Part shown: piece by piece, positions 46,994 through 56,286 of the stretch | Position numbering within the stretch: position 1 is the stretch's first letter | Layout of the letters: every line of letters starts with the position of its first letter | Source of the DNA: Candidatus Nomurabacteria bacterium | GTDB lineage: Bacteria; Patescibacteriota; Minisyncoccia; Phycocordibacterales; JACOZG01 | Length of the DNA stretch: 64,000 nucleotides | Direction of reading: 5' to 3' | NCBI GenBank assembly: GCA_020847275.1 | Contig: JADLCI010000007.1 | Location: forward strand, 188,059 to 252,058 | Translations under genes and position numbers: made by a program | The notes under the pieces: generated by a model | Databases searched by the model: none | Told to the model about the DNA's origin: nothing | The model's input: only the letters and a program-made list of their open reading frames with translations

Positions 46994-48062
46994 AGATTAT
47001 TATAATATTCTTGGGGTACAGCGTGGTGCCTCTAAGGAAGAAATAAAGAAAGCGTTCCATAAGCTGGCACACAAGTACCATCCAGATAAAAAGGGGGGTG
47101 ATGAGGAGAAATTTAAGGAGGCTAGCGAAGCTTATCAAACACTCTCCGACGAGCAAAAAAGACGTCAGTACGATGCTTATGGTACTACAGGTGCTCAGGG
47201 TGGTTTTGGCGGTGGCACAGAAGGTTTCGGTTTTGATTTCAGTAACTTTACTGGTGCGAATGGCGCGGATTTCCAATTTGATCTTGGTGACATTTTCGGT
47301 GATTTTTTCGGTGGCCAGGGTAATCGTGGTGTTCAGAAAAAACGTGGTCGTGACATATCTGTCGATATTCAGATCTCCTTTCCTGAATCGGTGTTTGGTA
47401 CCGAGAGGAATGTTTTATTAACCAAGGTTGGTGTCTGCGAGATTTGCAGTGGCTCTGGTGCCGCGCCTGGTTCGAGTCAAAAGTCGTGTGCTAAATGTGG
47501 TGGCAAGGGTAAACTTCACGAGACGCGACGATCTCTTATCGGGACATTCACAACTGCTCGCGAGTGTGAGCAATGTGGTGGCTTGGGGCAAGTGCCAGAA
47601 AAACCGTGTAGTACTTGTTCCGGTCGTGGCACATTGAAAAAAACCGAGGAAATCAAAATTGTGATTCCGTCGGGGATCGAGAACGGAGAGATGATTAGAT
47701 TGGCCGCCAAGGGTGAAGCTATTGCTCGGGGAGTGGCTGGCGATCTTTATGTTCGTGTTCATGTGGAGAAACACCCAACTTTCAAACGTGATGGGCAAAA
47801 CTTGATGATGGATTTATCGGTCAAACTTTCTGACGCGCTGCTCGGGCACGAATACTCAATTACAGCGCTCGATGGTGAAATTAAAGTAAGGGTGCCGGCT
47901 GGGGTCGCCTTTGGGGAGATTATTCGAGTACCCGGGAAAGGTGTGCCAAATACTGGTGGTCGTCGTGGAGATTTACTTGTCCGTGTAGTTATAAAAACGC
48001 CCGTAAAACTTTCAAAAAAAGCGAGAACGTTAATTGAGGAATTAAGGGAAGAGGGAGTTTAG
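46986..48062 (+). CDS. dnaJ: molecular chaperone DnaJ
   Basis: J domain with HPD (AHKYHPDKK). Gly-rich linker. Four CxxCxGxG zinc-finger repeats. Confidence 0.9.
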
Positions 48063-49013
48063 TGAGTCTTTTATCAGCTTTAACTTATTTGACGGAGGAA
48101 TAGTGACGCGAACATGACTTTTTAGACAATTTTTGCCGTCAGGATAGTCAGCGAGATCTTTCAGGAGAATATTTCTTCGCTTTAAGGATTCAAAAAATTT
48201 CTTAGTATCATTGACACCTAGGGTCAGGAAATTAGTCTGACTTGAGAAATATTCTATTTTTTGTTTTTGAAGAAAAATTTCTAACTCGGATCTCACTCTC
48301 TGGTTCTCCCTAACGTATTGGTTCATTTTTTTAATCCCAACGCGTCCAAGAGAATCTATTCCGGCTTTCAACGCAAGATGGCTCACAATATATGGTGGCC
48401 CCTTTAATTTTTCTAGCTTTTCTATCATTTTCTCGTGGGCGATAACGTAGCCAAAACGGGCTCCCGCCAGTCCAAACGCCTTCGAGAGTGTTCTTAGGAT
48501 TATTAGTTCGGGATATTTCTTGATCAACGATTTTATCGTTATGCCGTAAAATTCAAAATATGCCTCGTCAACAATGGTTAGGGTCTTGTTTCTACTTGCA
48601 CATAGTAAAATAGAGTCGAGCTCTGAATGAGAAAAAGCGTAACCGATTGGATTATTGGGGTTAGAGATGTACAAACCACGGTTCCTACCAGACTTGAGAT
48701 GTTTTATTATTGTTTGACTTGAGAACGATTTGGAATAGGGCAACTTCTTGAAGATGAGTTTACGGCTTAACTCAAATTTGTCATAAAAGACAAATGTCGG
48801 GACCGGTAATAGAATTTGTTCTTTTTCTCGGAATAAAAAAGAGAAAATTAAGTCCAGGGCGTGATAGGAGCCATTAGTGATTAGTAGGTTGTTTGGCGCT
48901 ACAGCTGCGTAGTTTGCTATAGCTTTTTTCGCTCGGGCATAATCTTCTTTACGAGCATAATCATAGCCTGGCGCTATTTTCACCGGTTTTTCGTTGAGGT
49001 CTAGTTTAAGCAT
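48042..49013 (-). CDS. PLP-dependent class I/II aminotransferase (HisC/CobD-like)
   Basis: [13 protein letters not shown] and [20 protein letters not shown], with a PLP-binding Lys in SKAFG. Confidence 0.6.
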
Positions 49014-49057
49014 TTACAGCAACATCTTTCTACTATATAATCACTCCATTCTAACAT

Positions 49058-50521
49058 ATGGTCAACCGTAAATCAGGCTCTATTTTGAGAGCAATCAAAA
49101 CTAAGAAGTCGTCTTACTGGGAACGGATTCGAAAACAACGCTCCCTGTCACTTTTTCATCAAGCTTCGCGAGAGGTCCCAGCTTATAAGGATTTCCTCAG
49201 GAAACACAAAATTGACCCCAATAAGGTTAAGGAATTCGAGGATCTAGAAATTTTACCCCACGTGACGAAAGACAACTATCTTCGGAAATATTCTCTGCCC
49301 GATTTGAGTTGGGGCGGGACGCTAGATCATCCTCTTGTCTATACCTCGACATCCGGTTCGACTGGTAATCCTGTCTATTTTCACCGTTCTTTCCGGTTAG
49401 ATTGGCAGTCTTCAATTCTTCACGAGATGTACTATTCTTTTGGGCAAAAAAGCAATGGCCCGACGCTTGTCATTGTCTGTTTTGGTATGGGGGTTTGGAT
49501 TGGGGGCATAATCACTTATCAAGCGTTTAGACTAATGAAAGAACGTGGACACAACCTTTCTCTCATTACACCCGGCATTAACAAGGAAGAGATATTTAGA
49601 GCTCTTAAAAATCTTTCGCCTTTCTATGCCCAGACAATTCTAGTGGGATATCCGCCATTTATCAAAGACATCGTTGATGAATCGGAGGAAAGGGGGATAA
49701 ACTTAAAAAAAATTGGTTTAAGGGTTCTATGCGCCGCAGAACCCTTTGATGAGAAATTCCGACGTTACCTTATAAAAAAATCGGGCGCCGACCACAAGAC
49801 AGGAGTTACTAATATCTATGGTACGGCCGATTTGGGTACGATGGCCATAGAAACACAGCTATCGATTACTATTCGCGAAAGCACCGTAAAGAGGCCGGAC
49901 ATATTTAAGGAGCTCTTTGGGGAAATCAATAAGACACCGACCCTGTGTCAGTATATTCCAGACCATATTTCTTTTGATACAACCCAGAACGGCGATATTC
50001 TAATAACTGGTGACAACTCAATTCCCCTGATTCGTTACGCCATCGGTGATCATGGGGGGACCTATTCTGCAGAAATGTTGGAAAAAAAATTGACGGATTT
50101 GGGGCAAAAGGTTGATTTTATTCAACATTTACCCTTTGTGTATGTGTACGAAAGAGCAGACATGTCCACCACACTTTATGGTCTTCAGGTTTATCCAGAA
50201 CCATTGCGGGAAATATTTTTGCAACAACCCTTTGTTAATTACTGCACGGGCAAGTTTATGTTAGAAACCAGGTTCAATCGAAAGCAAGACCAATATTTAC
50301 TTATACACATTGAATTACGCAAAAACAAGAAGATTACGGATATAATAAGAAGAGCGTTGCTGAGAGCCATCGTCCTTCAACTAGAGAATAAAAATTCTGA
50401 ATTCCGCGAGTTGCACAAAATGCTGGGACGGCGCTCATGGCCTAAGGTTGTTTTTTGGCCGTATGAGGATCAGAAATACTTTAAGGTTGGGATCAAACAA
50501 AAGTGGGTAAAGGGCAACTAA
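49058..50521 (+). CDS. adenylate-forming enzyme, phenylacetate-CoA ligase (PaaK)/F390 synthetase-like
   Basis: TSTSGSTGNPVYF is the AMP-binding P-loop of the PaaK-like subfamily. Confidence 0.65.
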   Translation: MVNRKSGSILRAIKTKKSSYWERIRKQRSLSLFHQASREVPAYKDFLRKHKIDPNKVKEFEDLEILPHVTKDNYLRKYSLPDLSWGGTLDHPLVYTSTSGSTGNPVYFHRSFRLDWQSSILHEMYYSFGQKSNGPTLVIVCFGMGVWIGGIITYQAFRLMKERGHNLSLITPGINKEEIFRALKNLSPFYAQTILVGYPPFIKDIVDESEERGINLKKIGLRVLCAAEPFDEKFRRYLIKKSGADHKTGVTNIYGTADLGTMAIETQLSITIRESTVKRPDIFKELFGEINKTPTLCQYIPDHISFDTTQNGDILITGDNSIPLIRYAIGDHGGTYSAEMLEKKLTDLGQKVDFIQHLPFVYVYERADMSTTLYGLQVYPEPLREIFLQQPFVNYCTGKFMLETRFNRKQDQYLLIHIELRKNKKITDIIRRALLRAIVLQLENKNSEFRELHKMLGRRSWPKVVFWPYEDQKYFKVGIKQKWVKGN

Positions 50522-51651
50522 AAAATATGAATCCAATTAAACTAGATCGGGCATGTGATAATTTCGAAGAATTTAAGACTCGATTAAATCCAACTAGGGT
50601 TATCGACCAATATGAGGTACTGTTGGACGATCTATTTACAATCCGAACGCCGCACACTAAGTTTATGGTTGATTACAAAGAGGAGTTGGACGAATTTGTT
50701 TCAGATTATCTTGCTGGCAAAAATATAATTGATGTTGGAGAGTGGTTTTTCTTTCCTTGGAATGGTCTTTTGGTTCATTATTTACCCGATCAAGAACACC
50801 AGGAGGTTCGCACAGCGAGGAATAGAAATATTATCACAGAAGATGAGCAAAAGAAGTTTTATAATTACCGAGTAGCAATTGCTGGTTTAAGCGTTGGCAG
50901 TCATCCAGCGTTGACAATGGGGATGATGGGTGGACCAAAGATGATGAAACTTGCTGACCCAGATGTCTTGGGACCCTCCAATCTTAATCGTTTGCGTTAT
51001 GATTTTACTACCATTGGTGATAAGAAGGTTGATCTTGTGGTAAATACTCTCTGGCAGATGAATCCCTATGGTGACTACCATCGTTATTCTGTCGGTGTGA
51101 CAACAGGAAATATTGACCAGTTTTTGGAGGGCGTAGATTTATTGGTGGAGGAGGTTGATAATTTAGAAATGAAAATACGCCTGCGCTTAGAAGCCAGAAA
51201 ACGTGGTATCCCCGTAATAATGGCAACTGATAATGGTGACAACGTGATTGTTGATATCGAACGTTTTGATTTGGAGAAAAATTTGGAGCTCTTTAATGGG
51301 ATCGCTGGACATATAGACTTGGAAGAATTTCAGAAAATAAAACCAGCGGATCTTCCAAAACTGGCAACAAAAATTGCCGGAAAGGATATGGTGATGCCAC
51401 GAATGTTGGATTCTCTGCTTGGTGTTGGTAAGACGCTCTATTCTTGGCCCCAACTTGGTGATGCCGCCACCTTGGCGGGAGTATCGCTGGCGTATATCAC
51501 GAAGCGGTTAGCTCTAGGGGAATCACTTCGGTCTGGAAAGCTGGAAGTAAACCTAGATAAAATTTTTGATCCCGACTACGATCTACCCGAGAATCAGGGG
51601 AGACGAGATGCTAATCGATCCCAGTTTGCCAAGATAATTGGACTGGAATAG
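50503..51651 (+). CDS. ThiF/MoeB/E1-like adenylyltransferase-fold protein
   Basis: RVAIAGLSVGSHPALTMGMMG...LADPDVLGPSNLNR matches the Rossmann GxGxxG and D..e.SNLnRQ pattern of E1-like enzymes. Probable start ATG 50527. Confidence 0.6.
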   Translation: MGKGQLKNMNPIKLDRACDNFEEFKTRLNPTRVIDQYEVLLDDLFTIRTPHTKFMVDYKEELDEFVSDYLAGKNIIDVGEWFFFPWNGLLVHYLPDQEHQEVRTARNRNIITEDEQKKFYNYRVAIAGLSVGSHPALTMGMMGGPKMMKLADPDVLGPSNLNRLRYDFTTIGDKKVDLVVNTLWQMNPYGDYHRYSVGVTTGNIDQFLEGVDLLVEEVDNLEMKIRLRLEARKRGIPVIMATDNGDNVIVDIERFDLEKNLELFNGIAGHIDLEEFQKIKPADLPKLATKIAGKDMVMPRMLDSLLGVGKTLYSWPQLGDAATLAGVSLAYITKRLALGESLRSGKLEVNLDKIFDPDYDLPENQGRRDANRSQFAKIIGLE

Positions 51652-51660
51652 AATCTATCT

Positions 51661-52704
51661 ATGGATGATCTGAAGAAGATCGTTTCTGAAGCGGTTTGGG
51701 CCCCATCTGGCGACAATTCCCAGCCATGGAGGTTTGTGATTGGGGAACTCTCTGTCAAGATTTTTAATCTTCCAGATCGGGACAACCCAATTCTCAATTT
51801 TAAAAAAAGTGGCTCATATATTGCACATGGTGCTTTAATCGAAAATATCACGATCTTGGCTGGGGAATTTGGCTATACCACTGATGTCAGGATTTTCCCA
51901 GACAGTAGCGAAGAGAATCTCGTTTCCGAAGTAATCTTTACCAAATCTCAAGTGGTTCGGAATCCACTGAGGGGGTATATAAAGGAAAGACATACAAATC
52001 GGCGACCGTATGAGGAACGTAAAATAGATGCTGTGACATTTGGTAAGCTGTTAGAGTCCGGCACAAATCAAGACGATTTGATAATTGTTGAGGAGGATTC
52101 TAAACTAAGGAAAATCTCTTCTGCTCTTAGTGTCATGGAAAGAATTGCACTCGAAAATAAGGGTCTCCACCGGCTTTTTTTTGGAGATCTTCTGTGGTCT
52201 GAGGATGATAACAAAGTAGGGAAACCCGGTCTGTTTGTAAAAACCCTAGAGATTCCCGTGATTGCGTTGTTTTTATTTAAAATTTTACGTTTTTGGCCGT
52301 GGACTAGATTGGCTAATCTCTTTGGTTTTTCGAGGATGGCTAGTTATGGAAATGCTAAGATTTATGCTAGATCCTCAGCATTCATTTTAGTTTCCACAAA
52401 AGGAAATCTGCCGGTCGACTTTGTAAATTCTGGTCGTCTTACGCAAAGGATTTGGCTGACCGCTGTTGCGGGGGGGTTAAGTGTCCAGCCCGTAACGGGT
52501 ATTTTGTTTATGGGACGTCGTTTCATGTCTGGTGATACTCAAGGATTTAGTATGAGACATGTTCAAATGGCAAAAGATGCCCATAACCAGGTTCAGAGAG
52601 AGTTCGGTTTACCTCGGGACAGCAACATGATGATGGTTCTGCGAATCGGATACGCCCAAGACCCAACCGCCCACTCGTTTAGGATGTCCCCTCACTTTAT
52701 CTAA
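51661..52704 (+). CDS. nitroreductase-family (FMN-dependent) protein, double-length (SagB/McbC-like dehydrogenase topology possible)
   Basis: AVWAPSGDNSQPWRFVI is the nitroreductase signature. 347 aa, about twice typical nitroreductase length. Confidence 0.6.
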   Translation: MDDLKKIVSEAVWAPSGDNSQPWRFVIGELSVKIFNLPDRDNPILNFKKSGSYIAHGALIENITILAGEFGYTTDVRIFPDSSEENLVSEVIFTKSQVVRNPLRGYIKERHTNRRPYEERKIDAVTFGKLLESGTNQDDLIIVEEDSKLRKISSALSVMERIALENKGLHRLFFGDLLWSEDDNKVGKPGLFVKTLEIPVIALFLFKILRFWPWTRLANLFGFSRMASYGNAKIYARSSAFILVSTKGNLPVDFVNSGRLTQRIWLTAVAGGLSVQPVTGILFMGRRFMSGDTQGFSMRHVQMAKDAHNQVQREFGLPRDSNMMMVLRIGYAQDPTAHSFRMSPHFI

Positions 52705-52738
52705 CAAAAACCAAAAAGTCTGCTAGAATTGTTCGTGA

Positions 52739-54355
52739 ATGGAAATCTTCACTAATTTTGATCTGCTTTCTGTGGGTATAACGGTAGCTGGTATTCTAGT
52801 TCTCGGCTTTTCAGTTTTCTTTAGCGACAGAAAGAGTGTAACGAATAGGGCGTTTTTGTTTTTTTCGTTGGTAACCGTCTTGTGGAGCACGATTAATTAT
52901 TCTTACTATCAGATCAGAGATCCGTACATTTCTTTCTGGCTTCTGAGAGCGGTTCTTTTTGTGGCCACTTGGCATGCCCTGTCATTTTTTATTTTGTCGT
53001 ATGTTTTTCCAAATAAATCTGTGATCTGGCCAAAGTATCTTCTCCCGACTCTTTTTTCGACCTCACTCTTTGTCTCCATCTTGACCCTCACTCCACTCGT
53101 TTTCTCAAACATTTTGACTGTTTCTGAAATCGGCCGCATTGTGAAAATACAAAACGGTCAAGGGATTGTTGTTTTTGGGATACTGATCTCGCTCTTTATA
53201 CTTGGTGGGTTATTTAACTTTATTAGAAAAACGATTAAAGCGAGGGGAATCGAGAGAAAACAGAACCGGCTTGTATTGGTGGGGCTTATTTTTACTTTTG
53301 CACTTATTTTTACATTTAATTTTATTTTGCCAGCCTTCTTCGATAGACCAGGATTTATACCACTTGGGGCACTTTTTGTCTTTCCTTTTGTCGCTTTTGT
53401 TTCCTACGCTATCATCAAACACGGCTTGCTCAATATCAAGGTCGTCACGACAGAAATTCTCACCTTTATTCTTTCGGTCGTTACTTTTGTCGAGGTTCTT
53501 TTTTCCGATGATCTAGCGCAGATAATTTTCCGGAGCGGCGTTTTTGTTTTGGTTTTAATTTTTGGTATTCTGCTGATCAAAAGTGTTCGTCGAGAAGTGG
53601 AGCAACGAGAAAAAATTGAAATACTTGCAGAAGAACTAACCATTGCTAATGAAAGACTGAAGGAACTAGATAAACAGAAGACGGAATTTTTATCAATTGC
53701 GTCGCATCAATTACGTGCACCGTTGACGGCAATCAAAGGTTATTCCTCTTTAATTTTAGAGCATTCCTTTGGTGATATTGGTGAGAAGGTTCGTGGGGCG
53801 GTCGATATAATCTTCCAGTCTAGCCAGAAACTCGTCACAGTTATTGAGGATTTCTTGAACATAACCAGAATTGAGTTAGGTAAAATGAAGTATGAAATGG
53901 GTCCAACGGATATGAAAGCCTTGGTAGAGACAGCGGTGAAGGAACTTGGTCCGCAGATTGAGAAGAGGGGTCTAGTGCTTGACGTAGAAATTCCCGCTGG
54001 TTTGAGTTTCGTGGTTACCGCTGATAGTGGAAAAATTGCTCAGGTGATTGGTAATCTAATCGACAACGCAACGAAGTACACCAAGGAGGGATCAATTACC
54101 ATTGCACTTTCTCGACCAATTGGCATCGGGAAGGTGAGACTTGCAATTACCGATACGGGTGTTGGGCTTACCCCAGGAGCGCACGCCAAGTTATTTGAGA
54201 AGTTTATTAGAGCCACGGACGCGGGTAAGATTAATATCATTGGCACAGGACTCGGTCTCTATGTGGCCAAACAAATTGTGGAAGCACACAATGGTAAAAT
54301 TTGGGCTGAATCACCAGGACCGGGGAAGGGGAGCACTTTTTACGTAGAATTATGA
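52739..54355 (+). CDS. sensor histidine kinase (multi-TM sensor, HisKA plus HATPase_c)
   Basis: Six or more N-terminal TM helices. H-box LSIASHQLRAPLTAIKGY. N, G1 and G2 boxes (NLIDNATKYT, DTGVGL, GTGLGL). Confidence 0.8.
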   Translation: MEIFTNFDLLSVGITVAGILVLGFSVFFSDRKSVTNRAFLFFSLVTVLWSTINYSYYQIRDPYISFWLLRAVLFVATWHALSFFILSYVFPNKSVIWPKYLLPTLFSTSLFVSILTLTPLVFSNILTVSEIGRIVKIQNGQGIVVFGILISLFILGGLFNFIRKTIKARGIERKQNRLVLVGLIFTFALIFTFNFILPAFFDRPGFIPLGALFVFPFVAFVSYAIIKHGLLNIKVVTTEILTFILSVVTFVEVLFSDDLAQIIFRSGVFVLVLIFGILLIKSVRREVEQREKIEILAEELTIANERLKELDKQKTEFLSIASHQLRAPLTAIKGYSSLILEHSFGDIGEKVRGAVDIIFQSSQKLVTVIEDFLNITRIELGKMKYEMGPTDMKALVETAVKELGPQIEKRGLVLDVEIPAGLSFVVTADSGKIAQVIGNLIDNATKYTKEGSITIALSRPIGIGKVRLAITDTGVGLTPGAHAKLFEKFIRATDAGKINIIGTGLGLYVAKQIVEAHNGKIWAESPGPGKGSTFYVEL

Positions 54356-54491
54356 TTTTTAAAAAGATAGTGTTGTCTATGAAGTTTAGAAATTAGATCA
54401 AAACAATCTGCCTTAGAAGAACCGAGACCCCAAAATTAAACCCGTTATCTTTCATGTTAAAATTAAAATAAACGTGGTAAAGTAGAGAATC

Positions 54492-55469
54492 ATGTCTGGG
54501 GATAAAAAAATATTACTGTCTGGTGTTAAACCTTCTGGTACCGTACACATCGGTAACTACTTCGGCGCACTGAAACAATTTGTCGATTTTCAGAATGATT
54601 ATCGTGCCCTAATTATGATCGCCGATCTCCACGCCCTCACCACACTCCATGATCCAGCAGAACTACGAAAGAATATTCTAGAACTCACGGCGGCCTATTT
54701 GGCAATTGGTCTCGACCCGGAGAAGGTCACACTTTTCAAGCAATCTGATATTCTAGAGCACACTCAGGCCGCTTGGATTTTCAGTTGTCTTACCACGATG
54801 CCGTATCTTATGCGTTCCCACGCCTTCAAAGATGCTGAGACTAAAAACAAAGAAGTAAACACCGGTCTCTTTACCTACCCAATCTTAATGGCCGCGGATA
54901 TTTTACTTTATTCACCGGATGTTGTTCCCGTTGGCCAAGATCAGAAACAACATTTAGAGATCGCTCGCGACATGGCCGAGAAGTTTAATCGTGTTTATGG
55001 TGAGGTATTCAAGTTACCAGAGCCACTGATTCTAGAAAATGTGAAAACCGTAGTTGGTTTAGACGGCCAGAAAATGAGTAAAAGTTATCACAATACGATT
55101 CCCTTATTTGCTACGGAGCGCGAATTGAAGCAGTTGGTTATGAGTATGAAAACTGATTCAAAAGGAGAAGAAGAACCCAAAAATCCAGAGGAATGTGGTG
55201 TTTTTGCACTACATAAACTTTTTAGTCAGGCTGATTTGGCAGAACTTAAGAAGCGGTATGTGGAAGGGAAAATTGGATATAAGGAATCAAAGGAGATTTT
55301 AGCAAAAAATATGAACGCTTACTTGGCGCCAATGAGGGAAAAATACGATTTCTTAATCAAGGACGAAAAAAGTTTGTCCGATATTCTCGCAAACGGAGCG
55401 AATTCAGCTCGAGAAATTGCTTCAGCAAAAATGGCCGAGATGAGGAAAAGTGTCGGTGTTAGTTTCTAG
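54492..55469 (+). CDS. trpS: tryptophan--tRNA ligase
   Basis: KPSGTVHIGNYFGA (HIGH-type motif) and GQKMSKS (KMSKS motif). Confidence 0.9.
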   Translation: MSGDKKILLSGVKPSGTVHIGNYFGALKQFVDFQNDYRALIMIADLHALTTLHDPAELRKNILELTAAYLAIGLDPEKVTLFKQSDILEHTQAAWIFSCLTTMPYLMRSHAFKDAETKNKEVNTGLFTYPILMAADILLYSPDVVPVGQDQKQHLEIARDMAEKFNRVYGEVFKLPEPLILENVKTVVGLDGQKMSKSYHNTIPLFATERELKQLVMSMKTDSKGEEEPKNPEECGVFALHKLFSQADLAELKKRYVEGKIGYKESKEILAKNMNAYLAPMREKYDFLIKDEKSLSDILANGANSAREIASAKMAEMRKSVGVSF

Positions 55470-56286
55470 AAAACAAAACATGTTAACTACTCTTGATGGC
55501 CGCATGGTGTCAGAAAAAATCGCCGCTGAACTAAGTCTGGAGATTAAGAGGTTAAAGATAGAACCAGGGTTGGCGATTATTCAGGTCGGGGATTTGGCTA
55601 CTTCTAGTCTTTATATCAAACGTAAAATCGCATTCGCCAATAAGATTGGAGTGAGGGTGGATCATCTTAGGTTTTCGGAGGATTCTTACCAAGACGAACT
55701 ACTTTCGGAAATTGATAAACTTAATCATAATAATGATGTTGGTGGAATTATTGTTCAGCTTCCTCTCCCAAACAAATTAGATAAGTCAAAAATTGTGGAG
55801 GAGATTGCCCCCGAGAAAGACGTAGACGGTCTGCGGGTGGGGAGCATTTTTACTCCCGCTACCGCTCGTGGAATTTTGTCGCTTTTGGATCACTACCAAA
55901 TTAAAATTTCCGGTAAGAGAGTCGTGGTGGTTGGGAGGTCTACTTTAGTGGGTAAACCTATTGCCCGTGCTCTTCTTTCCCGGGGTGCGACGGTCACAAT
56001 CTGCCATCGTCAGACTCAAAATTTGGCAGACGAAACAAGACGGGCGGATATTTTGGTTGTTGCCGCCGGCTCACCTCACTTGATTAAAGAAAATTACGTT
56101 AAGCCAGGGCAGGTCGTGATTGATGTCGGTCTTTCTTCGACGGGGGAGGGAAAGTTGCTTGGCGATGTGGATCAGGTTTCAGTTAGAGAAATTGTGTCCG
56201 CCATTTCACCTGTCCCGGGTGGAGTGGGTCCGATGACGGTCGTGTCACTTTTTCTTAACCTCTTGGACGCTTACAAATCAAAATAA
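55450..56286 (+). CDS. folD: bifunctional methylenetetrahydrofolate dehydrogenase/cyclohydrolase
   Basis: LAIIQVGDLATSSLYIKRK and VVVVGRSTLVGKPIARALL...ATVTICH are FolD signatures. Confidence 0.85.
   Translation: MSVLVSRKQNMLTTLDGRMVSEKIAAELSLEIKRLKIEPGLAIIQVGDLATSSLYIKRKIAFANKIGVRVDHLRFSEDSYQDELLSEIDKLNHNNDVGGIIVQLPLPNKLDKSKIVEEIAPEKDVDGLRVGSIFTPATARGILSLLDHYQIKISGKRVVVVGRSTLVGKPIARALLSRGATVTICHRQTQNLADETRRADILVVAAGSPHLIKENYVKPGQVVIDVGLSSTGEGKLLGDVDQVSVREIVSAISPVPGGVGPMTVVSLFLNLLDAYKSK

Follow-up and report, generated by a model that had tools for sequence, protein, structure and literature searches.

A candidate Patescibacteria operon for an amino-acid-derived small molecule, with a split oxazolone-synthetase-type enzyme pair and a linked membrane sensor kinase

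Results

A five-gene unit in Candidatus Nomurabacteria

The DNA analysed here is a stretch of 64,000 nucleotides from a Candidatus Nomurabacteria genome (contig JADLCI010000007.1, positions 188,059 to 252,058 of the forward strand), hereafter called the window. It contains a compact cluster of five genes, which encode a HisC-like aminotransferase, a ligase of the PaaK fold, a ThiF-like protein, a double-length protein of the nitroreductase (NTR) fold, and a sensor histidine kinase with about seven to eight transmembrane segments (7TM kinase; Table 1). An earlier note on this sequence had described the first four of these open reading frames (ORFs); they occur at the positions and on the strands given there, and their domain calls are backed by profile matches. 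The note had also recognized that the cluster is compact; its end, however, does not lie at 52704, as had been suggested, since the conserved 7TM kinase gene that follows belongs to the cluster as well. The functional unit extends from 48042, in the aminotransferase gene, to 54355, the end of the kinase gene.

Table 1. Features of the cluster, with positions in the window
Feature	Position	Strand	Length	Profile match or remark
Class I/II pyridoxal phosphate-dependent aminotransferase (HisC-like)	48042-49013	-	323 aa	PF00155, E 2e-37
Sigma-70-like promoter, TTTACA-17-TATAAT	49013-49041	+		Directly 5' of the ligase gene; 11/12 consensus positions, consensus match only
Divergent PaaK-family adenylate-forming ligase	49058-50521	+	487 aa	PaaK fold; TIGR02155, E 3e-12
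ThiF-like protein, predicted ATP-dependent cyclase	50527-51651 (ATG) or 50503-51651 (GTG)	+	374 or 382 aa	PF00899, E 3e-17
Predicted flavin-dependent oxidase/desaturase, Acg/FDO branch, two NTR halves	51661-52704	+	347 aa	PF00881; NF047509, E 4e-40
Sensor histidine kinase	52739-54355	+	538 aa	HisKA_7TM, HisKA, HATPase_c

The ThiF-like and nitroreductase-fold proteins match two halves of one family

The ThiF-like protein and the nitroreductase-fold protein align with consecutive parts of the same family model. Against NF005901 ("Rv1355c family"), the former covers positions 36-349 of 722 (E 7e-76, 256 bits) and the latter positions 377-713 (E 3e-46, 158 bits). The nitroreductase-fold protein also matches NF011424 (PRK14851) over positions 330-671 of 679 (E 8e-57) as well as the Acg family of flavin mononucleotide (FMN) oxidoreductases (NF047509; Table 1), with Acg itself (2ymv, E 3e-7) as a match in the PDB; at E <= 0.01, its NCBIfam matches comprised PRK14851, the Rv1355c family, the Acg family and PRK14852 only. 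Since the two proteins correspond to different halves of these fused-protein models, they can be assigned to an oxazolone-synthetase-type pair, that is, the separated halves of the fused Rv1355c/TrzS family, within a conserved small-molecule operon. At the level of sequence, this assignment is solid. The earlier note had named ThiF-like and nitroreductase-fold proteins as hallmark partners of azole-forming and other modification pathways, and a working partnership in which one protein cyclizes and the other then dehydrogenates is upheld here.

Rv1355c, or TrzS, converts N-acyl tryptophan to N-acyl tryptazolone by ATP-dependent cyclization followed by O2-dependent desaturation, and the resulting oxazolones are labile to acid and methanol (PMC12856293). 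The same reactions are performed on N-acyl tyrosine by OxzB of Pseudoalteromonas and by the separate proteins TyzB and TyzC of Mycobacterium tuberculosis (bioRxiv 10.1101/2020.06.11.147165; PMC10404671), and so far no ThiF-like enzymes outside this chemistry have been reported to act on small molecules (PMC12596934). Traits of these synthetases present in the window are a ThiF domain of the Rv1355c type with its N-terminal extension and, after a gap of 9 nt, the gene of a nitroreductase-fold protein of the Acg and flavin-dependent oxidase (FDO) type. Alignment with Rv1355c-family proteins further revealed common motifs: in the ThiF-like protein the nucleotide loop G120-x-S122-V123-G124 together with D146, N152, N154, R155, K167 and D211, and in the flavoenzyme, relative to the FDO domains, A14-P-S-G-x-N-x-Q-P-W23, R110/N113/R114, H170 and R328. 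By its position in the motif, D211 is the putative counterpart of the TrzS aspartate whose mutation abolishes cyclization.

An exhaustive search with the ThiF-like protein of the window returned 883 representatives at E <= 1e-30. Among the 150 representatives listed, 108 contain the ThiF domain alone and 39 are ThiF-NTR fusions; four relatives (P0302, P0331, P0371 and P0253) score above the cutoff of the Rv1355c family. Two further architectures were observed among the relatives. In P0255 (924 aa), this type of ThiF is fused to a tyrosine-2,3-aminomutase or ammonia-lyase domain of the 4-methylideneimidazole-5-one type, and in P0334 (1010 aa) a ThiF-FDO protein carries an alpha/beta-hydrolase domain that might serve to open the oxazolone ring or to transfer it.

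Sulfur transfer of the MoeB/ThiF kind was considered for the ThiF-like protein and rejected. MoeB and ThiF sulfur-carrier models gave 25-71 bits, compared to cutoffs of 152-449, the protein has no conserved Cys or CxxC motif, and no carrier protein was detected in or beside the cluster.

A divergent ligase with a PaaK-type fold

The ligase is only distantly related to characterized families: it reached 45.6 bits with the PaaK model TIGR02155 (cutoff 646.3), short of PaaK equivalog membership, and 16.9 bits with the Pfam AMP-binding model, which is below the gathering cutoff. Its AlphaFold2 model (mean predicted local distance difference test, pLDDT, 89; predicted template modelling score, pTM, 0.88) was compared to known structures using Foldseek, and matched PaaK1 (2y27, E 2.5e-22, TM-scores 0.70/0.79), with AjiA1, NatL2 and ClxA among the next matches. 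The P-loop residues T98-S99-G100 and a C-terminal lysine, K480, are invariant in 58 homologs. The protein is thus modelled as a ligase with the two-domain adenylate-forming fold of PaaK, including the P-loop and the C-terminal catalytic lysine. In NatL2 and ClxA, which are members of the PaaK family, the acyl-adenylate reacts with a second small molecule, giving an ester or amide instead of a coenzyme A (CoA) thioester (PMC7204872, PMC12519233). Homologs of the ligase are numerous (1875 at E <= 1e-5); the 120 that were listed all show 50% identity or more, have a length of about 500 aa and, as far as they are named, belong to Patescibacteria.

The cluster is conserved across Patescibacteria

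In a scan of one genome per species, relatives of the ligase were identified in at least 281 species-level genomes, and 80 loci were retrieved. The neighbourhood set comprised 81 non-redundant loci; linkage was counted in the 54 whose sequence continues for 5 kb or more downstream of the ligase gene. A ThiF gene was present in 53 of these 54, a separate NTR gene in 46 (plus one ThiF-NTR fusion) and a 7TM kinase gene in 48; all three occurred as separate genes in 45/54 loci. Core genes are separated by a median of 7 nt. Ligase, ThiF, nitroreductase and 7TM kinase genes are found together in Falkow-, Lipton-, Pace- and Wolfebacteria, while the flanking genes differ between lineages. The order of the genes also varies (NTR and ThiF swapped, ThiF-NTR upstream of the ligase gene, insertions in some loci), and the set is still kept together. 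This grouping is far beyond chance. The neighbourhood comparison, which the earlier note had suggested, bears out its reading of the genes as a biosynthetic cluster: the cluster is genuine, conserved and co-transcribed, and it is conspicuous in a streamlined genome of the Candidate Phyla Radiation (CPR), with the set kept together in most of the 54 loci.

Natural gene fusions tie the enzymes to one another. Ligase and ThiF are fused in P0363; dehydrogenase, ligase and ThiF in P0327 (two NCBI accessions, on two contigs); and ThiF and NTR, within the CPR clade, in L087 (733 aa) and P0242. These fusions confirm that dehydrogenase, ligase, ThiF and NTR catalyse steps of one pathway. Across 27 loci and the window, mean pairwise identity was highest in the ligase (53%), followed by ThiF (49%), the kinase (42%) and the flavoenzyme (38%).

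Two irregularities were noted in the collected loci. One contig of 5430 bp (L029) is a near-perfect palindrome in which a ligase-ThiF fragment is followed by a ThiF fragment-ligase arrangement on the opposite strand, probably an assembly artefact. Typical cluster genes also occur in metagenome-assembled genomes (MAGs) labelled Pseudomonadota and Gammaproteobacteria (L067, L078), and many other MAGs bear the label 'uncultured Candidatus Saccharibacteria'; these labels are probably artefacts of binning or naming.

A variable amino-acid-deaminating enzyme accompanies the ligase

The aminotransferase of the window scored 204 bits with the hisC model TIGR01141, below the cutoff of 276 bits, and its second-best match was CobD. 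Equivalent positions next to the ligase gene are occupied by unrelated enzymes in other loci. Among the 70 loci in which this slot could be assessed, 31 hold a dehydrogenase of the Glu/Leu/Phe/Val family (ELFV), best matched by the tryptophan dehydrogenase ScyB (267-300 bits, under the cutoff), and 11 a HisC-like class I/II aminotransferase directly upstream of the ligase gene. A class IV branched-chain aminotransferase (BCAT) fills the slot in three loci, one of which was checked (L024) and lies above the IlvE cutoffs, and an aromatic ammonia-lyase does so in L089, a locus reached through a kinase look-up. When the whole fetched locus was considered, the counts were 32 for ELFV dehydrogenases, 15 for aminotransferases, three for BCAT and 24 for none, with eight loci not assessable. 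The slot type follows the ligase clades. A marine Pacebacteria locus (L004) with the same DnaK-DnaJ ... TrpRS-AspRS context as the window (TrpRS and AspRS denoting tryptophanyl- and aspartyl-tRNA synthetase) carries a 169-aa gene and a dehydrogenase in place of the reversed aminotransferase. Because these unrelated replacements all strip an amino acid of its alpha-amino group and leave an acid, the slot enzyme appears to supply a deaminated acid, which is the kind of substrate that PaaK-type ligases activate. The aminotransferase is thus functionally part of the cluster, filling a variable amino-acid-deaminating slot.

A link to cobalamin was also considered, given the match to CobD and that BluB is a nitroreductase. 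It was rejected: the NTR protein is of the Acg type, and elsewhere the slot is taken by dehydrogenases of the Leu/Phe/Trp type, by BCAT or by a lyase. The gene of TrpRS adjoins the cluster in 15/81 loci (L004, L010, L050, L058 and L079 among them), usually just after the kinase gene and upstream in L013, L020 and L043, and the dehydrogenases linked to TrpRS best match ScyB. Reading this linkage as a sign of a tryptophan substrate was rejected, as AspRS is equally frequent, and it was treated as synteny. Six loci (L004:5492-6001, L010, L014, L033, L070 and L074) contain, between dnaJ and the dehydrogenase gene, a small and very hydrophobic protein of about 170 aa without a family match.

A polytopic membrane histidine kinase is linked to the enzymes

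The kinase has about eight hydrophobic segments in residues 1-280 and an H-box (SHQLRAPL), and lacks a receiver domain. In the 27 loci and the window, the membrane sensor domain is better conserved than the catalytic core (44% versus 39% mean pairwise identity). The linkage was also examined in reverse: a search with the sensor domain alone gave 44 matches, mostly fragments, and three of these were used to look up the neighbourhood. All three kinases, one at only 35% identity, adjoin ligase-ThiF-NTR genes. One to three response regulators are encoded upstream in about 25 loci, and most of them are 128-162 aa long and consist of the receiver only. A simple role in transcriptional control of the operon is not obvious, since such regulators offer no room for a DNA-binding domain.

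Synthesis genes that share an operon with a polytopic membrane histidine kinase are a feature of quorum-sensing-like modules, and this feature is present here. Based on the persistent operonic linkage, the conservation of the sensor domain and the analogy to luxMN, cqsAS and agrBDCA, we tentatively consider the kinase a candidate sensor of the pathway product or of a relative of this product, a role we rate at somewhat less than an even chance.

Accessory genes and absent partners

Several loci contain additional genes. A TehB-like methyltransferase is encoded in L015 and L043, and an O-methyltransferase of the COMT type in L088. In seven loci (L037:11698-12612, L056, L065, L068, L080, L085 and L090), a protein of about 305 aa is encoded between the nitroreductase and kinase genes; it has no significant Pfam or NCBIfam match and only sub-threshold matches to class I methyltransferases, and its first ~100 residues resemble nothing found. 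The methyltransferases are optional additions to the cluster and fit a small-molecule product.

N-acyltransferases of the OxzA, TyzA, TrzA or NasY type are absent from the cluster in the window, and no recurrent acyltransferase-like family was found among the extra ORFs of the 81 loci. Likewise, no conserved ORF of 25-110 aa, which could be a precursor peptide or a ThiS/MoaD-like carrier, lies in or beside the cluster in these loci; the few apparent families of small ORFs look like antisense shadows of real genes.

Transcriptional organization and genomic context

The intergenic gaps across the cluster measure 44, 5, 9 and 34 nt, the last preceding the kinase gene. The ThiF gene probably starts at the ATG at 50527, because a database protein that is 100% identical to it, annotated from a Candidatus Nomurabacteria genome, has 374 aa. 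Read from this ATG, the ThiF gene follows the ligase gene at a distance of 5 nt, without an overlap. The co-directional, abutting arrangement of ligase, ThiF and NTR genes described in the earlier note is hence retained, and the overlap between the ligase stop and the ThiF start is not. The promoter-like site in front of the ligase gene is the best sigma-70-like match in a scan of 7.5 kb, which revealed no convincing terminator-like site between the plus-strand genes of the operon. A weaker match on the opposite strand (49065-49037) faces the aminotransferase gene, which is transcribed divergently from the ligase gene, and a weak separate promoter-like site precedes the kinase gene.

The surrounding genes are housekeeping genes, as had been noted before: GrpE, DnaK and DnaJ are encoded upstream, and TrpRS (54492-55469), FolD and AspRS downstream. 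The aminotransferase gene is convergent with dnaJ (plus strand), also in line with the earlier description, and the two 3' ends overlap by 21 nt (48042-48062), which leaves no space for a terminator between them. GC content is 0.41-0.42 over the cluster, the kinase gene and TrpRS/FolD (48000-56000), versus ~0.45-0.47 on either side. A recently acquired island was considered and rejected, as the dip in GC is small, only to 0.41 from about 0.46, and the synteny of DnaK-DnaJ, cluster and TrpRS-AspRS is common to marine Pacebacteria.

Discussion

We propose that the cluster is a conserved Patescibacteria operon which directs the production of a small heterocycle derived from amino acids and includes a membrane sensor kinase of its own. 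Taken as a whole, this proposal has about even odds of being correct. The most secure part, which we consider likely from homology, is that the genes constitute a small-molecule pathway in which the ThiF-like enzyme cyclizes and the flavoenzyme desaturates; the steps assigned to the slot enzyme and the ligase could go either way. In the proposed sequence of reactions, the slot enzyme (here the HisC-like aminotransferase) would deaminate a hydrophobic or aromatic amino acid to a 2-oxo or enoic acid, as its non-homologous replacements suggest. The PaaK-fold ligase would then adenylate this acid and join it to the amine of a second amino acid, yielding an N-acyl amino acid without the use of CoA, and thereby take the place of the acyl-CoA-dependent N-acyltransferase of OxzAB, TyzACB and TrzAS. 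This CoA-independent N-acylation, judged jointly with the preceding deamination, is to us an evenly balanced prediction. By homology, the ThiF-like enzyme would adenylate the free carboxylate, allowing the amide oxygen to close the ring to a 5(4H)-oxazolone, and the Acg-type flavoenzyme would introduce a double bond between C-alpha and C-beta. The pathway would yield an unsaturated oxazolone or, if the ring then opens, the corresponding N-acyl dehydroamino acid, and the product may be methylated in some lineages. Finally, as suggested by linkage, the 7TM kinase might sense this hydrophobic product or a relative and signal through single-domain CheY-like regulators.

Several points weigh against this proposal, which draws on sequence and gene context rather than biochemistry. 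The scores of the ThiF-like (256 bits) and NTR (158 bits) proteins are both below the NCBIfam equivalog cutoff of 476 bits, a cutoff that was set for the full-length fused protein. The genes of DnaJ, TrpRS and AspRS border the cluster in 15-18 of the 81 loci, and part of the linkage may be inherited synteny, because all loci come from one superphylum. A deaminating enzyme is lacking from the fetched region in 24 of the 74 assessable loci, and the ligase might simply form CoA thioesters for an acyltransferase whose gene lies in another part of the genome. As to the kinase, single-sequence and profile searches found no response regulator in the 64-kb window, the adjacency of its gene could reflect co-regulation only, and we know of no receptor for any oxazolone or N-acyl dehydroamino acid. 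Moreover, many of the MAGs with the cluster come from groundwater, where oxygen may be scarce, and the characterized FDO homologs need O2.

What the product does is a separate question. It could be an autoinducer: a vertically inherited and self-contained communication system, in which the CoA-independent pathway makes an oxazolone or N-acyl dehydroamino acid from scavenged amino acids and the 7TM kinase, together with CheY-like regulators, detects it. We regard this as possible but doubtful. Synthesis of such an autoinducer could also report O2, since the characterized relatives of the desaturase depend on it. Alternatively, a molecule of the same type might serve as an effector or protective metabolite, such as an antimicrobial, a host-directed factor, or a membrane or oxidative-stress lipid as proposed for the tyrazolones of M. 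tuberculosis, with the kinase sharing the operon or its regulation without binding the product. This alternative draws on the same enzyme evidence and on the weak promoter-like site in front of the kinase gene. In addition, relatives in M. tuberculosis have been linked to oxidative-stress resistance and macrophage survival (PMC10404671), and the products of other relatives alter the biofilms of competitors (PMC12479983), none of them having a known receptor. It accounts less readily for a kinase gene that remains beside the enzymes in 48/54 loci despite rearrangements and is recovered in 3/3 reverse look-ups, for a membrane domain that is more conserved than the catalytic core, and for regulators that are mostly receiver-only. 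A role as effector is, to our mind, likewise a tentative possibility.

The earlier note had suggested a pathway that modifies a peptide, akin to the thiazole/oxazole-modified microcins (TOMMs) and other peptides that are made by ribosomes and modified after translation. Here, ThiF would activate the carboxylate of a peptide or of a protein C-terminus and the nitroreductase-fold enzyme would oxidize an azoline. The note had itself reported neither YcaO nor a precursor peptide, and this holds: Pfam and NCBIfam profiles detected no YcaO among the five cluster proteins, the gaps leave no room for a further gene, and no small ORF recurs in the 81 loci. The NTR protein belongs to the Acg/FDO branch and is not matched by any SagB or McbC model (NCBIfam, E <= 0.01), and the closest characterized relatives use free N-acyl amino acids. 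The N-terminal extension of the ThiF-like protein, which could have hinted at a peptide-binding function, is common to the small-molecule TrzS family from about residue 31, and the slot enzymes act on free amino acids and are fused to ligase-ThiF, pointing to small substrates. Peptide modification is therefore highly improbable.

The genes could also be unrelated housekeeping or catabolic neighbours, namely an aminotransferase or dehydrogenase and a ligase of amino-acid fermentation, an activator of the MoeB/ThiF kind and a generic nitroreductase. Aminotransferases or dehydrogenases do occur with PaaK-type ligases in the fermentation of aromatic amino acids, the second-best match of the aminotransferase is CobD, and some of the surrounding genes form a block of conserved synteny. 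Yet the ThiF-like protein falls far short of the MoeB and ThiF cutoffs and matches the Rv1355c family strongly, neither a conserved Cys/CxxC motif nor a ThiS/MoaD-like ORF accompanies it, the fusions place dehydrogenase, ligase, ThiF and NTR in a single pathway, and no recurrent 2-oxoacid:ferredoxin oxidoreductase was found among the extra ORFs of the 81 loci. Generic housekeeping enzymes without conserved co-occurrence, the outcome that the earlier note had regarded as decisive against its cluster, are clearly not what these data describe, and we give this explanation very little weight. An anti-phage defence module of the E1/Cap2-like type is the least probable of all, given that PADLOC returned generic E1-fold matches only (and none for ligase, NTR or aminotransferase), that E2, JAB and cyclase partners are missing, and that the cluster occupies a conserved position among housekeeping genes rather than a variable island.

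Patescibacteria, whose genomes are tiny and encode very little biosynthesis, are thought to rely on other cells; the means by which they sense or communicate with hosts or kin are largely unknown. Given that the cluster is kept in at least 281 species-level genomes, is compact and is tied to a kinase, it provides a testable candidate for signalling or host interaction in these organisms. Our analysis suggests that these minimal bacteria use the cluster to produce, and perhaps also to sense, a small molecule derived from amino acids, and not to modify a peptide. If the proposed pathway is correct, an ATP-dependent ligase of the PaaK family in place of an acyl-CoA transferase would constitute a new route to N-acyl amino acids, and deaminated amino acids would be new acyl donors for oxazolone-synthetase chemistry. 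If the product were an autoinducer, it would represent a new class of signal and form, together with its receptor, the first such pair to be described as widely conserved in the CPR.

The enzymology of ThiF together with FDO is known from work published between 2021 and 2025. In the literature searched, we found no report linking these genes in CPR bacteria, nor a description of their pairing with a PaaK-family ligase and interchangeable deaminating enzymes, of the absence of an acyltransferase, or of a dedicated 7TM kinase across Parcubacteria-type Patescibacteria. The closest system is TrzAS of M. tuberculosis and relatives (Rv1356c/Rv1355c), which synthesizes N-acyl tryptazolone (PMC12856293). 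The ThiF cyclase and Acg-type oxidase are homologous to it over their full length, including the N-terminal extension, and have ATP-binding and FMN motifs in common with it. In contrast to TrzAS, the two halves are separate genes here, their scores lie under the family cutoff, and an acyl-CoA N-acyltransferase of the TrzA type is lacking; instead, the cluster comprises a PaaK-fold ligase, a deaminating enzyme and a co-operonic 7TM kinase, and its host is a Patescibacterium rather than an actinobacterium. OxzAB of Pseudoalteromonas rubra and TyzACB of M. tuberculosis follow the same logic, with ThiF and ATP cyclizing an N-acyl amino acid and FDO desaturating it, and TyzB and TyzC are separate adjacent genes, as in the window. 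However, OxzA and TyzA are acyltransferases that resemble N-acyl homoserine lactone synthases and use acyl-CoA, none of which was found in the 81 CPR loci, and no sensor kinase has been described for their clusters. The stieleriacine clusters of Planctomycetes display the pattern of ThiF, nitroreductase and methyltransferase that is also seen in CPR loci; no linked kinase has been reported, and the N-acyl dehydrotyrosines made by these clusters act between microbes, altering biofilms that other bacteria form (PMC12479983).

The ligases of benzoxazole pathways, NatL2, AjiA1/BomJ and ClxA, have the PaaK fold in common with the CPR ligase and are precedents for the formation of esters and amides, albeit at 16-18% identity in structural alignments and with aminohydroxybenzoates as substrates. 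With the TOMM machineries McbBCD and SagBCD, the cluster has a general theme in common, which is ATP-dependent cyclodehydration followed by FMN-dependent dehydrogenation by a nitroreductase-fold enzyme. It differs from these by the use of ThiF rather than a YcaO cyclodehydratase, by an oxidase of the Acg/FDO rather than the SagB/McbC branch, by the absence of a precursor peptide and by a predicted small-molecule substrate. In LuxM/LuxN, CqsA/CqsS and AgrBD/AgrCA, signal-making enzymes are encoded beside a multi-pass membrane histidine kinase without a large extracytoplasmic domain. The likeness of the CPR cluster to these modules is one of gene arrangement, for which we claim no relationship in sequence; its regulators are mostly receiver-only, and the signal chemistry would be new.

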